Shown in pieces: positions 33,229 through 38,025 of a DNA stretch of 64,000 bases (positions are counted from its first letter, which is position 1; every line of letters starts with the position of its first letter). A program made the translations under genes and the position numbers. The stretch is from Candidatus Altiarchaeales archaeon ex4484_96 (GTDB lineage: Archaea > Altiarchaeota > Altiarchaeia > IMC4 > QMZM01), in NCBI GenBank assembly GCA_002254405.1, contig NJDH01000003.1, positions 5,080-69,079 on the forward strand. The letters are read 5' to 3'. The notes beneath the pieces are model-generated. The model was not told where the DNA came from and made no database searches. It was given only the letters and a program-made list of their open reading frames with translations.

Positions 33229-36200
33229 ATGACGAGATATTATTTTATCCCGCACTCTGTTGTTGTTTTGCTTTTTTTTTCATTTAGCTTGGTCTCTCTT
33301 GTAATTAATGTTGAGGCATGTGTATCATCACCAGAGTGCCCTGATAGATGCCCATACCTTGGAAATGGTTGGGGGTGCTATTATGATAATGAATGCACAA
33401 TCCTTTGTGAATACTGTGGTGAAATATACCCTGTAACCGAGGCTGAAGACTGTGACTGGGGTGATACAAACTGTATCAACCAGCCTCATCTGCCTCTCAC
33501 CGATGATATACCACCTGACTACGAGAATGTCGGGATTGCCTCTTTTGGAGAAGCATATTATTATCGCAGAGGATTTATTGATGTTGTTGAAAGCGGCACT
33601 CCTGAGGCGCAGATAAGCATATCACCCGATGTTTATCTGAAGGAAGTCAGCGAAGATTTTTATTGCTTTAAGACTCTGCTTCTTGATTTAGACATATGTG
33701 AGGTGATAGGCGGCAGCGTAGATAATACAGACTATGATCTTGTATCGAGCAAAGAAAGAGCCACAAGACAATTTGAGAGGGATGAGGCTTATTCTTTCAA
33801 CTATGGCTCGAATCCCATAGCAAGATGTTACAGGACGGCGGATTTAGGCCGGGGTGTGACCGAGCAACAGGAGATGCAGCTTGTAATAACTCCAACTAAT
33901 CTTGTGGTGGCCGCCCAGAAACCATCGTATAGCTGCAGCCAGTATGCCACAGAGCAGGCATGTCAGTCAACCGGGGTTTGCGAGTGGGACGAGGTGTGGC
34001 TGAGATGTGAGTTTGTTCCATATGAGGGTTTCACAGAAGAAAACCAGGTGATGTTCTGGCTTATGGAACCTGAAAGATGCTATGCCTTGGATATTTATGG
34101 GGCTGGCTCCACATATAAGTGGACCTTGATTAACGACCCGGCATATAAGGCTCTGGTAGAGCACTATCATAGCAGGTCCGGTTTTGGTCCGTTGACGGAC
34201 CCGCCCCCCGAAGTTGACGCTGATGATTTGCCCAAGGACCTCAAGCCCTCGTATCATGTTGAGCTTTTTTTCGGGGCTGATGAGGTTTACGCTACTTTCT
34301 TCGAGAAATGGGCTAAACATTATATTAAGGAGCTTGGGGGCATGGATGAGTCGGAGAGGCTTTACTGCTATAAGACGGATTTATGGGATACCAGCTACTG
34401 CTATGAGCTGCCTTATCACCTGTATTCTTTTCTTGAAGACAACAGTCTTGTTTTGATTGATGATGTATACATCAACAACATAAAACTGTGGAACGACTTC
34501 CAGTACATAAATGAGATGCCAGCAAAGAATCTTATAACATATGATGTGCCCGGAATTAATGTTGTATACATAATGGGTCCTCCGCTGGAGGATGAAGAGC
34601 GTCTTTGGCACGGGCTCTGGATTAAGTTTTTCACAGTAAGCCCGATGATTCAGTTATCCGGTGCTGGGGGGGCATCCAGGTGGGCTCAGACGAGGGTTGA
34701 GACAGAGGAGTATGTTGGTTCCGGTATGGATAGGAGGGATGCATGTGAATATAGCTGCGTTTATACTGAGGAGGAATCAGATAATCCATGCCGTCTCCTT
34801 GAAGAGTGCGATCCGTTTGACCCCATGGATGATGACGAAACCCAATATGAGCATTGTCCTAATGAAAATCCTCATTATGACCTATGCTCGGGTTTTGATT
34901 CAGATGAGGATCCTGATAGCGTTGATCAGATTGGTTCATGCAGTATCTATCGGGGGGTGGATGATGAGTGTGTATCGGATACGGGGGATTATCCAACATG
35001 CTTGGAGTGGCGTGTTAATCCACCATCGGCTAGTGACTGCTGGGGTGGTCTAAATGAGGTTGAACCCTGTGAGGTTATATCGCAGTATCAGCTTATGCGG
35101 GATTGTCCACCAGAGGAATGTAGGGATGCTGGCTATGGTCAGGGGGGTTTCGAGAAGGTGGAGGTGCCGTGGTATGAGCGTATTTGGGGTTCAGGTAATG
35201 AATACTGTGTCTGGAAGCTTTTATCTCAATACCCTGATTGTACCAGTTGTCTGGAAGGCTCTCAGGGTGTTGGTTACACCATTGTTGAACAAAAGCAGGA
35301 GGCTCCAGGACCTCTTTGCCTCACAAAGTACATACTGGAAGGTGGTGTCAAGGCTACGACAACAATCAAGATTAGATACAATGGTAGTCTCACCCCTGAT
35401 GAGGTTTACAGGGTTGAGATACACAATATAAGCGACAATATATGGATGACGGAGTTTGAGCAATCTAGTAAACCCTATTTCAAGTTAATAGACACCGCTG
35501 ATATACCCTTCCAGGTTACCTGTGCTTATCTGGTTGCTTCACCGCGTTTTGACTGTGAATTTGAGGCTGGTTGCTCTAATGTCCAGATTGTAAGATACAT
35601 GAGATCTAAAATGGGCAGGTGGTCTAGGCTTACCTTAGATTCGGATGTGCTTAAATCTGATGTTATAAATGATATTCACATGAATGTGGAGTTTGAAGTG
35701 AAACAGGATTATTTAACCGGTCTTAGGGAGGATAGGTTTTATACGGCATGCGACAGGTTAAACTGCAACTGTGAGGAATGTTTGTGCCCCTGTAAATGTC
35801 CTGAGATACATACACCCACCTATCAGTTTATCCTAGCTGACAGTAACACAGGATATAACGATGATGTCTGCGGCGGGGTGAGCGAGAAGGTTATGCTTTT
35901 ATGTCCCTGCCCGCTTTGTTGTTATCCTCCCCGCTCCTCATGGTATGATATGTGCTGGCATCAGTGGAGGGAGGAAATAAAGTCATGGTATCATGAGCAG
36001 ACGACCTCAACGATATCCGACAGCTTTGAGGTATTCAACTGGGAGAAAGAAGGTTGGGTGTATAACAGCCCATCAGGTGAGGATGAGCCTATTGAACATT
36101 ATCTGGAGCTGGATGCCACAAGATACAAAGACGGGGATATCATATCCACCCAGGGGTTCATCAACTTCACAATAAGCCCTAATATCTTTCGGGGGATGGA

Positions 36201-38025: not shown

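Follow-up and report, generated by a model that had tools for sequence, protein, structure and literature searches.

What is the function of a 1598-residue, cysteine-rich surface protein encoded at the head of a series of membrane protein genes in an archaeon, and do its gene neighbours work with it? This question is raised by a 64,000-nucleotide stretch of DNA (hereafter the window) from Candidatus Altiarchaeales archaeon ex4484_96. Altiarchaeota are widespread subsurface carbon-fixing archaea with a double membrane and unique surface appendages; to our knowledge, the proteins organising their envelope are almost unknown. The giant protein and the five membrane proteins encoded downstream of it point to an uncharacterised cell-envelope machine. 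We tentatively propose that the giant protein is the exposed subunit, acting like an adhesin or receptor, of an envelope complex that is encoded on the chromosome and derived from T4SS, a reading that we favour while rating its chances somewhat short of even.

Anatomy of the giant protein

The preliminary description of the window had reported a single 1598-aa ORF, and this was confirmed by ORF analysis and translation. The gene and its parts are listed below.

33229..38025, + strand: gene of the giant Cys-rich type-I membrane protein (1598 aa, stop codon included in the coordinates); single ATG-to-stop ORF, translation, orthologs
33229..33318, + strand: signal peptide, aa 1-30 (h-region aa ~10-28, then VEA followed by C at the inferred cleavage site); hydropathy
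33319..33417, + strand: lineage-specific Cys-rich N-terminal insert, aa 31-63, 9 Cys; alignment A1, columns 338-375
34321..34833, + strand: family module M1, aa ~365-535 (WN..EMP...W.KIFTVTP...W..TG...Y.G.G..R..C); module map, alignment A10
35326..35793, + strand: family module M2, aa ~700-855, beta-rich in the model; module map
35749..35955, + strand: dense Cys cluster, aa 841-909, with CxC/CPC/CC motifs; sequence and ortholog alignment
36106..36444, + strand: signature M3, aa ~960-1072 (IT..PDIL.GF...YPVKH.L.RK.S...YGYE...FPEQCKK.CP..C.C); module map
36766..37218, + strand: putative CBM-like beta-jelly roll, aa ~1180-1330; AF2 model and Foldseek
37546..37878, + strand: putative Ig/MG-like beta-sandwich stalk domain, aa ~1440-1550; AF2 model and Foldseek
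37903..38022, + strand: family-specific anchor, aa 1559-1598; invariant alignment columns

A hydropathy scan detected two hydrophobic segments only, at aa ~10-28 and aa ~1561-1583. The first is signal-like and is also present in the orthologs, while the second is followed by a 15-aa tail, in agreement with the earlier view of a secreted protein with a single C-terminal anchor. The ectodomain is acidic, with a computed pI of 4.26 and a mass of 174.9 kDa. Its Cys-rich insert at aa 31-63 is missing from all orthologs in alignment A1. The anchor region reads LSP(E/Q/D), TM helix, FSY(K/R)(F/W)(F/L), x, R.(D/E/Q), x4, W, x3, (R/K)G and a basic end; this anchor/tail motif occurs once per locus, in the giant protein only, and in nearly all full-length relatives.

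The number of cysteines was 69 and not "more than 90" as first announced, but the enrichment itself is real, since Cys accounts for 4.32% of the residues versus 1.49% in the window's other 48 ORFs (binomial P ~2e-14) and both motifs quoted at that time, CNCEECLCPCKCPE (aa 846-859) and CPCPLCCYPP (aa 892-901), are present. Across six orthologs, 48 of the 69 Cys (70%) do not vary, versus 27% of the non-Cys positions, and these 48 are distributed across 1150 residues. Within the dense cluster at aa 841-909, the number of Cys differs among orthologs and only C841, C846, C848, C851, C853, C881 and C909 are invariant. These organisms are reported to be anaerobes of anoxic habitats, where disulfide formation outside the cell is not assured; metal binding by the cysteines is an alternative. 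The giant protein might accordingly be an extracellular metal-binding or redox protein, whose CxC/CxxC/CPC clusters would hold metal or Fe-S centres, for example to sequester metal or to transfer electrons in sulfidic habitats without oxygen. The density of CxC/CPC/CC motifs at aa 841-909 and their variable Cys number would fit this explanation, as would the lack of oxygen and the resemblance of FPEQCKK.CP..C.C in M3 to the Fe-S-binding region of the glutamate synthase small chain (GltD), a match which is non-significant (E 0.45). We nevertheless consider it very improbable: the invariant Cys are spread as in ectodomains stabilised by disulfides and, being even in number, could form 24 pairs, and Pfam detected no cytochrome or ferredoxin domain in the protein, also at E <= 10. 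Self-BLAST revealed no internal repeats. The neighbouring secreted proteins are also Cys-rich (3.7-9.3% Cys), indicating that Cys richness is not special to the giant protein.

No family was assigned to the giant protein by Pfam or NCBIfam at E <= 0.1 or by PHROGs at E <= 0.01, and Pfam at E <= 10 returned BIg21 (0.18) alone. The orthologs were equally without Pfam match, bar an N-terminal MgtE_N extension in one of them (P0004). The six-ortholog profile (A1) matched nothing significantly among all PDB chain sequences, giving only VAP/MSP at E 0.19, and the M3 (A9) and M1 (A10) profiles had no significant match in PDB sequences. A known enzyme or S-layer family covering most of the length was thus searched for in Pfam, NCBIfam, PHROGs and PDB, and none was found. 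Structures were predicted by AlphaFold2 on two halves of the protein with the 6-sequence alignment. The N-terminal half (aa 64-840) gave an unusable model (pLDDT 32), and the C-terminal half, with a pLDDT of 44 overall, three usable islands only. Foldseek searches against PDB with aa ~1180-1330 (pLDDT ~55-73), the start of which is marked by an invariant HE.EGS.IVNGDFEMGF, led to CBM4/22/28/11/16/61 (E 4e-5 to 1e-3, TM(target) 0.37-0.51), without any CBM Pfam match in the giant protein and its orthologs. With aa ~1440-1550 (pLDDT 69-88), MG and pilin Ig domains were recovered (E 2e-4 to 7e-4, TM(target) 0.5-0.6); at the sequence level this region has sub-threshold matches (BIg21 E 0.18; VAP/MSP E 0.19). 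According to this model, which is of low confidence, the C-terminal third may contain a jelly roll akin to those of CBMs and also an Ig-like domain. The absence of recognizable domains noted earlier holds at the sequence level, where Pfam, NCBIfam and PHROGs are silent, and may not extend to the fold level.

An undescribed family with named members confined to Altiarchaeota

Five to six close full-length orthologs were found, at 41-62% identity. An exhaustive profile search added 26 distant relatives of 848-2570 aa, and the giant relatives form ~28 clusters. Every named member is from Altiarchaeota or Altiarchaeales, and the giant protein is the founder of an undescribed family with named members confined to this phylum; no prior description of Altiarchaeota with VirB2/VirB6, PF18895 or Cys-rich giant proteins was found in the literature. 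Profile searches with the paralog alignment and with the distant-relative alignment (A8) retrieved near-identical sequences only. In the module map the family modules are collinear, with a variable N-terminus and variable inserts and a conserved core, stalk and anchor. M3 is the most conserved signature, aligned in ~23 of the 26 distant relatives, and in the relative P0022 a VWA domain takes the place of M2.

Of the distant relatives, 6 have VWA domains according to Pfam, and others contain PKD, Ig or beta-propeller-type domains. Together with the putative CBM/Ig-like folds of the C-terminal third, these domains make plausible the adhesin role that had been put forward. Since the model is unusable for the N-terminal 1150 residues, the word adhesin is based on the domain content of relatives and on architecture. 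The architecture resembles that of integrin-like type-I receptors: distal binding modules that vary (VWA/propeller in relatives) stand on a stalk rich in disulfides, which is followed by one membrane-spanning anchor and by a juxtamembrane tail that is conserved. For these receptors, as for PrgB and the Cys-rich TraN, the likeness is one of analogy only: common descent has no sequence or fold support and the PDB profile search was negative. VirB5/TraC, PrgB, TraN and CagL chains in PDB showed no sequence similarity to the giant protein with profiles A1, A9 and A10.

The same phylum produces the hamus, a grappling hook, and S_Layer_N, NosD and FKBP_C are the domains that define the hamus protein in Ca. 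Altiarchaeum hamiconexum (Bird et al. 2016, PMC4975002). None of these domains was matched in the six orthologs, even at Pfam E <= 10, and none is among the Pfam families of the 26 distant relatives (E <= 0.001); because the defining domains are absent, the giant protein is not a hamus protein. In addition, no Cys feature is mentioned for the hamus protein, and the giant family is found in Alti-2-type genomes reported without hami.

Five downstream paralogs in a fixed order

The giant gene is followed by five paralogs and by a gene for a PH-like protein.

38027..39232, + strand: paralog 1 (401 aa): signal peptide, VirB2/T4SS-pilin-like hairpin, soluble loop, 3-4 further hydrophobic helices
39234..40181, + strand: paralog 2 (315 aa), architecture of paralog 1; PF18895 E 0.013
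40186..41367, + strand: paralog 3 (393 aa), architecture of paralog 1
41364..42440, + strand: paralog 4 (358 aa), architecture of paralog 1; PF18895 E 6.4e-5
42446..43942, + strand: paralog 5 (498 aa), core as in paralog 1, preceded by an additional N-terminal ectodomain of ~230 aa
44062..44586, + strand: 174-aa conserved protein with two N-terminal TM helices and a cytoplasmic PH-like domain; bPH_3 E 0.011, sub-threshold

The giant gene comes first in a tight series, with successive gaps of 1, 1, 4, -4 and 5 nt, as expected from the earlier proposal that it heads an operon containing the five paralogs. The same proposal had called for a search for orthologs and synteny; orthologs were found and the cluster is conserved across the phylum. 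This conservation and the VirB2/T4SS-pilin-like hairpins of the paralogs had been missed at that stage. Exactly five paralogs lie downstream of the giant gene at nine diverged loci (the window, L001/L002, L003, L009, L010, L013, L014, L015 and the P0027 contig), and two truncated loci have at least 4 before the contig end (L007) and at least 1 before a scaffold gap (L008). In all loci compared (L001, L007, L009, L010), each paralog best-matches the paralog of the same position, even at 28-40% identity. The exceptions both concern position 5, L007 having no fifth gene before the contig end and L009_5 best-matching L007_4. The order 1-2-3-4-5 is therefore fixed. The PH-like protein also has orthologs, of 172-206 aa, at the same position in L001, L003, L009 and L010.

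An alignment of 19 paralogs (A5) was compared by hhalign with that of the 10 T4SS_pilin repeats of the genome (A6, from window 989-4168; PF18895 match 3.2e-57, TrbC 1.6e-19), which gave a probability of 93.6% and an E of 2e-7 over 70 columns. Direct PF18895 matches were obtained for 10 of the 19 paralogs (best 1e-5), all under Pfam's 26.6-bit cut-off. The hairpin consists of two TM helices and a short conserved basic loop (...G.....S.SP..R..AK...). These profile comparisons show that the five paralogs carry a VirB2/TrbC/T4SS_pilin-like (PF18895) hairpin. They begin with a VirB2-like N-terminus, to which a soluble loop and then 3-4 hydrophobic helices are added, a layout resembling that of VirB6/CedA. 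No homology was detected by hhalign between the paralogs (A5) and R388 TrwI/VirB6 (probability 0.2%), and the paralog profiles A4 and A5 had 0 matches in PDB sequences at E <= 10. The paralog 3 ortholog of L001 has a weak precomputed TrbL_3 match, which was not reproduced on rescan.

The giant protein is linked to the paralogs through co-transcription and synteny alone, and it could also be a stand-alone envelope protein or adhesin, S-layer-like or forming a periplasm-spanning tether, the operon partners aiding its insertion or maturation or being unrelated to it. Its size, acidity, Cys content and putative Ig/CBM-like stalk are typical for archaeal surface proteins, the locus encodes further secreted proteins with as high a Cys content, and a double membrane has been reported for Altiarchaeales (PMC4975002). 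Moreover, one relative (P0034, at L012) has no paralogs downstream, though four T4SS_pilin genes flank it. However, Pfam scans revealed neither an S-layer domain nor a hamus domain (S_Layer_N, NosD, FKBP_C), and the order giant-1-2-3-4-5-PH is retained where the giant proteins align only locally, which is hard to explain across lineages without a functional link. The deep conservation of the cytoplasmic tail also argues for a specific partner. We thus regard a stand-alone role as unlikely. Should the giant protein prove to be no more than an adhesin whose gene is co-transcribed with membrane protein genes, the locus would be of smaller value, offering a new domain family and a C-terminal anchor motif for archaeal annotation.

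Other genes of the cluster

Three further genes are associated with the cluster.

44550..45338, + strand: N-terminal piece of the split last cluster gene, Cys-rich domain and PKD; PKD match
45493..46107, + strand: second piece of the split last cluster gene, Cys-rich segments around a T4SS-pilin-like hairpin
30266..33163, - strand: divergent 965-aa ectoenzyme with signal peptide, weak T4SS-pilin-like hairpin, 2 PKD and a transglutaminase-like core

The two pieces of the last gene correspond to a single 969-aa protein of L003, to aa 1-260 of which the first is 67% identical and to aa 398-594 of which the second is 61% identical. The second piece matches PF18895 (E 1.1e-4) and the NCBIfam Mbov_0395 pilin-like family (E 1e-5). 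For the N-domain of the first, a LAS/M15 peptidase was considered and dropped, as Pfam gave it no support. Further pilin genes in the window encode a 10-repeat poly-pilin (989-4168) and another pilin protein (122-949), and in L014 a poly-pilin adjoins the cluster.

The 965-aa ectoenzyme is encoded upstream of the giant gene, and its positional counterparts contain SLT in L001, L004 and the distant L009, and Amidase_3 in L003. Such enzymes would be compatible with a contact-dependent antibacterial or prey-attachment device, in which the giant protein would hold on to bacterial envelopes and the membrane-anchored enzymes of the cluster would break down the peptidoglycan of the attached bacteria. 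An SLT, Amidase_3 or transglutaminase core is indeed encoded by the divergent neighbour in the window, L001, L003, L004 and L009, the predicted jelly roll of the giant protein is glycan-binding-like, and archaeal peptidoglycan hydrolases are used against bacteria (PMC12352652). That report, however, mentions neither Altiarchaeota nor T4SS. An SLT beside VirB2-like genes is equally explicable as a VirB1-type accessory, the type of enzyme varies, with no such gene detected by Pfam near L007, L014 and L015, and a toxin/immunity pair was not seen. An antibacterial function appears improbable to us.

Comparison with T4SS and a proposed model

The N-termini of CedA and VirB6 are homologous to a VirB2-like pilin (PMC9905601), and in the R388 system a VirB6 pentamer carries a VirB5 pentamer (Mace et al. 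2022; PMC9259494). The giant protein could by analogy be the pilus-tip or stalk protein of a working Ced/Ted-like T4SS for DNA or protein transfer, with a VirB4-type ATPase encoded elsewhere; the paralogs would then form a VirB6-like heteropentameric base, and the nearby VirB2-like pilins would polymerise and lift the giant protein like VirB5. We hold this possibility to be clearly unlikely. It is favoured by the five fixed-order paralogs, given that VirB6 and VirB5 are each pentamers between which the pilus is proposed to grow (PMC9259494), by the many VirB2-like genes (the 989-4168 poly-pilin, 122-949, the L014 poly-pilin), by the SLT (VirB1-like) enzyme encoded beside the cluster and by the acceptance of archaeal Ced/Ted as T4SS derivatives (PMC9905601). 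Against it, no ATPase was found in any neighbourhood examined. A VirB4, VirD4 or VirB11-type ATPase was detected neither in the 64-kb window (Pfam, ORFs >= 150 aa; the unscanned ORFs are all < 240 aa), nor among the called genes (+-10 kb) of L001-L003, L008-L010, L012-L015 and the P0027 contig, nor among the part of the L004 and L007 ORFs that was scanned. Equivalents of VirB3/4/8/9/10/11 were not found at the cluster. With no ATPase near the cluster, a working T4SS-like machine is not demonstrated. In addition, VirB6 homology of the paralogs went undetected, the giant protein is unlike VirB5, TraN and PrgB chains in PDB, its stop-transfer anchor and cytoplasmic tail are less suited to a pilus tip than to a protein bound to the cell, and the locus is core chromosomal, with conserved housekeeping flanks and no mobile element.

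With Ced/Ted (CedA/CedA1/CedB; TedA/TedC/TedB), the cluster shares a chromosomal location in archaea, a VirB2-like hairpin and polytopic proteins with a VirB2-like N-terminus. It differs by the lack of a nearby VirB4-like ATPase, by five fixed paralogs versus one CedA/TedA, by a giant C-terminally anchored ectoprotein that is missing in Ced/Ted, and by the lack of a detectable sequence match of the paralogs to VirB6. The bacterial T4SS stalk offers another likeness, with five VirB6 protomers and an extracellular protein on top versus five hairpin proteins and one extracellular protein here, and with an SLT (VirB1-like) enzyme adjoining the Altiarchaeota cluster; its base, in contrast, is a homopentamer of one gene, whereas five different genes are present here. 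VirB5 is about one-seventh the size of the giant protein, which is membrane-anchored and unrelated in sequence to PDB entries. In Rickettsiales, several diverged VirB6-family genes lie in tandem in a fixed order, some with large extra domains, and are bona fide VirB6/TrbL members beside virB3 and virB4. The Altiarchaeota paralogs are without proven VirB6 membership or adjacent ATPase, and here the large ectodomain is a separate protein. An account of the rvh T4SS of Rickettsiales includes such tandem VirB6 paralogs (PMC2653234).

Returning to the exposed subunit of an envelope complex that we favour, the giant protein is a Sec-exported type-I membrane protein with a ~175-kDa acidic (pI ~4.3), cysteine-stabilised ectodomain. 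Far from the membrane this ectodomain is variable; its core is conserved and collinear, and close to the membrane lie the putative CBM-like jelly roll and Ig-like stalk. The family-specific TM helix, with its conserved ~20-residue cytoplasmic tail, fixes the protein in the cytoplasmic membrane, and helix and tail would dock it on a base made of the five co-transcribed, non-redundant paralogs, in an envelope complex so far known only from Altiarchaeota. The neighbouring pilin-hairpin-anchored ectoproteins and the lytic transglycosylase/amidase/transglutaminase-like enzyme may be parts of the same surface machine. We infer the docking of the giant protein on the paralogs, the paralog hetero-oligomer and the adhesive role. 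A bolder proposal, to which we give little credence, is a T4SS-derived, ATPase-independent Altiarchaeota organelle made of an obligate heteropentameric ring of five VirB2-hairpin proteins with a docked or threaded giant protein; it might act as a tether or conduit across the double membrane, or poly-pilins might feed a VirB2-type filament for which it forms the base. As a re-use of T4SS components, five VirB2-hairpin paralogs versus a VirB6 homopentamer would represent a natural experiment in symmetry-breaking of an assembly. A phylum-restricted family of giant anchored surface proteins is now defined and tied to a conserved eight-gene module with a conjugative-pilin hairpin, and family and module together are a specific candidate, open to testing, for a machine of the archaeal envelope or of cell contact.

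Genomic setting

None of the ORFs scanned encodes an integrase, and Rfam detected neither tRNA genes nor RNA genes of other kinds; on these grounds, and given the conserved flanks, we reject a mobile-element origin of the locus. The preliminary description had also considered a host-associated or episymbiotic lifestyle; this was not upheld, the organism being a member of the Altiarchaeota with a normal chromosomal context (IleRS, RFC, ThyX, MetE) and not an episymbiont. The flanks are conserved in three species, with IleRS-RFC upstream and an AI-2E transporter and phosphoglucomutase downstream.

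The giant protein is a cysteine-rich membrane protein

The giant gene was confirmed as follows:

33229..38025, + strand: giant-protein gene, 1598 aa, single unbroken ORF from ATG to stop

A hydropathy scan of its product revealed just two hydrophobic segments. The first, at aa ~10-28, is followed by ...NVEA-C and resembles a Sec signal peptide, while the second, at aa ~1561-1583, precedes a 15-residue tail of basic and acidic character. The giant protein is thus predicted to be a type-I membrane protein, with an ectodomain of ~1530 residues (pI 4.26, 174.9 kDa). Internal repeats are absent from the protein. 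More than 90 cysteines had been attributed to it in the preliminary description; the actual count is 69. Its Cys-rich character is nevertheless borne out, at 4.32% cysteine versus 1.49% across the 48 remaining window ORFs (binomial P about 2e-14), and both motif strings quoted at that time were recovered, at aa 846-859 and 892-901. Among six orthologs, 48 of the 69 cysteines (70%) are invariant, versus 27% for other residues. This composition is not peculiar to the giant protein, as secreted proteins at the locus are generally Cys-rich (3.7-9.3%). Just past the divergent ectoenzyme gene lies another secreted protein, without a match in Pfam, which has differing counterparts in the related loci L001 and L003:

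29382-30326, - strand: 314-aa secreted protein, 5.4% Cys, C.PDC / CDPDC repeats, own C-terminal TM anchor

A family of collinear modules found in Altiarchaeota

Searches of Pfam, NCBIfam and PHROGs returned no family match for the giant protein, and a profile of its orthologs had no significant match among all PDB chain sequences. The orthologs were likewise silent in Pfam, except for an N-terminal extension in one of them (P0004, 1889 aa), where ~330 aa of MgtE_N-like repeats (PF03448, E 2e-17) replace the plain signal peptide; this extension may be a gene-call fusion with the ORF upstream. Five relatives only were recovered by a word-indexed search. A profile spanning aa 64-1182, searched exhaustively with HMMER, led to 28 cluster representatives of 381-2570 aa, 26 of them new. 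Most full-length relatives share a signal peptide, 2.6-4.8% Cys, an acidic character and one C-terminal TM helix. All source-named members belong to Altiarchaeota or Altiarchaeales, one being MSIBF_03315 of genome IMC4, which was assigned to clade Alti-2 by Bird et al. (PMC4975002). The names given to members in databases are all either "hypothetical protein" or "VWA domain-containing protein".

To obtain folds, AlphaFold2 was run on a 6-sequence alignment for aa 64-840 and aa 826-1598 separately. Prediction failed for the first part (mean pLDDT 32) and left three usable islands in the second (mean pLDDT 44); it was unsuccessful over two-thirds of the protein.

Conserved modules and predicted folds of the giant protein
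aa ~365-535: module M1, mapping of relatives
aa ~700-855: module M2, mapping of relatives
aa ~960-1072: module M3, aligned in about 23 of 26 distant relatives
aa ~1075-1125: island 1, small helical Cys-rich piece, AlphaFold2
aa 1150-1180: short motif, mapping of relatives
aa ~1215-1325: island 2, beta-jelly roll, AlphaFold2
aa ~1445-1545: island 3, beta-sandwich, AlphaFold2

When the relatives were mapped on the window protein, the conserved modules proved collinear, the jelly roll, the Ig-like domain and the anchor among them; aa 1-360, 550-700 and 1070-1150 are lineage-specific. VWA domains occur in 6 relatives (in P0022 between M1 and M3), and beta-propeller-type repeats, PKD and Ig domains were also encountered. 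Foldseek against the PDB related the jelly-roll island to carbohydrate-binding modules (CBM4/22/28/11/16/61) and the beta-sandwich island to macroglobulin or pilin Ig-type domains, with E-values of 2e-5 to 1e-3 and TM scores on target of 0.4-0.6 over the two islands together. The assignments as a CBM-like jelly roll and an Ig/macroglobulin-like sandwich, drawn from predicted models, are probable but unproven.

The strongest signature of the family is IT..PDIL.GF...YPVKH.L.RK.S...YGYE...FPEQCKK.CP..C.C. The M3 and M1 profiles had no significant match in the PDB, the top one for the module profiles being the Fe-S region of the glutamate synthase small chain (E 0.45, non-significant). The invariant FPEQCKK.CP..C.C at aa 1040-1060 (nt ~36346-36408) resembles NNFPEICGRICPQDRLC of PDB 2vdc_G at this same E-value of 0.45. 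The likeness to NNFPEICGRICPQDRLC is probably due to chance; it is one lead for viewing the giant protein as a metal-binding protein, which we regard as extremely improbable.

A second hallmark is the anchor motif, SP(E/D), TM, (F/L)S(Y/F)(R/K)(F/W/Y)(F/L), x2-7, R.(D/E/Q), x4, W, x3, (R/K)G, present in a single copy per locus and in the giant protein only. Because the cytoplasmic tail is so deeply conserved, its sequence argues for a specific partner. Taken with the predicted folds, the architecture is that of a putative adhesion or receptor protein, in which the distal modules vary (VWA and propellers in the relatives) and the Cys-rich core is conserved; towards the membrane follow a predicted stalk of jelly roll and Ig domain, a single-pass anchor and, last, the conserved tail. 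Identity with the hamus grappling-hook protein was rejected, the defining S_Layer_N, NosD and FKBP_C domains being absent.

Five paralogs follow the giant gene in a frozen order

The giant gene and the five genes behind it are separated by gaps of 1, 1, 4, -4 and 5 nt. The five products are paralogs (29-35% mutual identity), each laid out as a signal peptide, a two-helix hydrophobic hairpin with the linking loop S.SP.GR.KAK, a soluble loop and 3-4 more hydrophobic helices. Sub-threshold T4SS_pilin matches in Pfam were seen in 10 of 19 paralogs from four loci. The hairpin was also compared, profile to profile, with the bona fide pilin repeats of the same genome, encoded at 989-4168 and matching PF18895 (E 3.2e-57) and TrbC (1.6e-19), and gave a probability of 93.6% (E 2e-7). 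By sequence, then, the hairpin is VirB2-like. CedA and VirB6 themselves have an N-terminus reported as homologous to the VirB2-like pilin (PMC9905601). Combined with the further membrane helices, it gives the paralogs the same layout of parts as VirB6/CedA-type proteins. Direct homology to VirB6 was looked for and not detected (hhalign against the VirB6 protein R388 TrwI, probability 0.2%; empty PDB profile searches), and the claim is therefore limited to the hairpin.

In nine loci (the window, L001/L002, L003, L009, L010, L013, L014, L015 and the P0027 contig), the giant gene has exactly five paralogs behind it; L007 has at least four up to the contig end and L008 at least one up to a scaffold gap. 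Among L001, L007, L009 and L010, each paralog best matches the paralog of the same position, even at 28-40% identity. Just two exceptions occur, each at position 5: the L007 contig ends ahead of any fifth gene, and L009_5 best matches L007_4. The five-fold duplication is therefore ancient and its order frozen, a pattern that would be expected of non-redundant subunits in one hetero-oligomer. In bacterial type IV secretion systems (T4SS), the stalk consists of a VirB5 pentamer atop a VirB6 pentamer (PMC9259494). By analogy with this stalk, the giant protein may dock on a base that the five paralogs would build as a heteropentamer. A rival reading, in which the giant protein is a stand-alone structural protein, is unlikely. 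One family member, P0034 (L012), is not followed by the paralogs and adjoins four T4SS_pilin genes.

A proposed chromosomal surface module with T4SS-like parts

After the paralogs comes a protein of 172-206 aa that has two TM helices and weakly matches a bacterial PH domain, then a protein whose ectodomains have a T4SS_pilin hairpin as their anchor (PF18895, E 8.5e-12 in L009 and 4.4e-9 in L010). The window copy of the latter gene is broken in two, at 44550-45338 and 45493-46107 (+), which match aa 1-260 and aa 398-594 of one 969-aa L003 protein. At the break ALTFTG recurs, and ~375 aa are lacking at the C-terminus; the split could stem from collapse of a PKD repeat, from a frameshift or from genuine gene decay. 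In L010 (14638-15858) and L015 (22637-23917), a Band_7/SPFH-domain membrane protein follows paralog 5, interposed in L010 ahead of the small 2TM protein.

The divergent upstream gene encodes an ectoenzyme with PKD domains, which carries SLT in L001, in L004 and, far more distantly, in L009, Amidase_3 in L003 and a transglutaminase core in the window. An antibacterial attachment device, to which such enzymes might be related, is very unlikely. No VirB4-type ATPase was present among the genes examined in the window or in any locus neighbourhood examined, and it seems quite unlikely that the giant protein acts in a true pilus tip or T4SS whose ATPase is encoded elsewhere. The data support a chromosomal surface module with VirB1-like (SLT) and VirB2-like parts common to type IV secretion systems, confined to Altiarchaeota among named sequences, and support the giant protein as its one large extracellular component. 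We rate the system as a putative T4SS-derived archaeal envelope system including a protein family new at the sequence level; no description of the giant family, the five-paralog module or T4SS-pilin-type genes in Altiarchaeota was found in the literature.

Genomic context and other genes of the window

The cluster is flanked by housekeeping genes of archaeal type (RFC small subunit, IleRS, ThyX, MetE, A-type ATPase subunits, RtcB), and the nearest homologs of the giant protein were found in MAGs of Candidatus Altiarchaeales and Altiarchaeota. Three species share the gene order IleRS, RFC, ..., giant gene, ..., AI-2E transporter. A mobile-element origin was rejected in view of these conserved flanks and of the lack of an integrase among the scanned window ORFs; the giant-gene locus is core chromosomal. 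A scan of 1-64000 at Rfam gathering thresholds returned zero RNA genes, tRNA included.

Pilin-type genes and a further operon were also noted:

122-949, + strand: pilin-hairpin gene, 275 aa, 6.2% Cys, directly upstream of the poly-pilin gene
989-4168, + strand: poly-pilin gene, 1059 aa, about 10 tandem VirB2/T4SS_pilin hairpin repeats
52706-55606, - strand: operon of MoxR-type AAA ATPase (AAA_3), DUF58/VWA and DUF7502, ~7 kb downstream of the cluster

The PF18895 match of the poly-pilin covers 8 stretches, and a comparable gene (966 aa) directly adjoins the cluster in L014. The hairpin of the 275-aa protein is above the Pfam threshold (41.1 bits, E 1.9e-10), and the pilin hairpin seems in widespread use here as an anchor of secreted Cys-rich domains. 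In L012 (Altiarchaeota GCA_016931955.1, 134-2906 and 7161-8189), the four T4SS_pilin/TrbC genes, all small, lie on one side and a Peptidase_A24 gene, encoding a prepilin peptidase, on the other. The 52706-55606 operon is probably unrelated to the cluster and represents another VWA-linked membrane system of the window.
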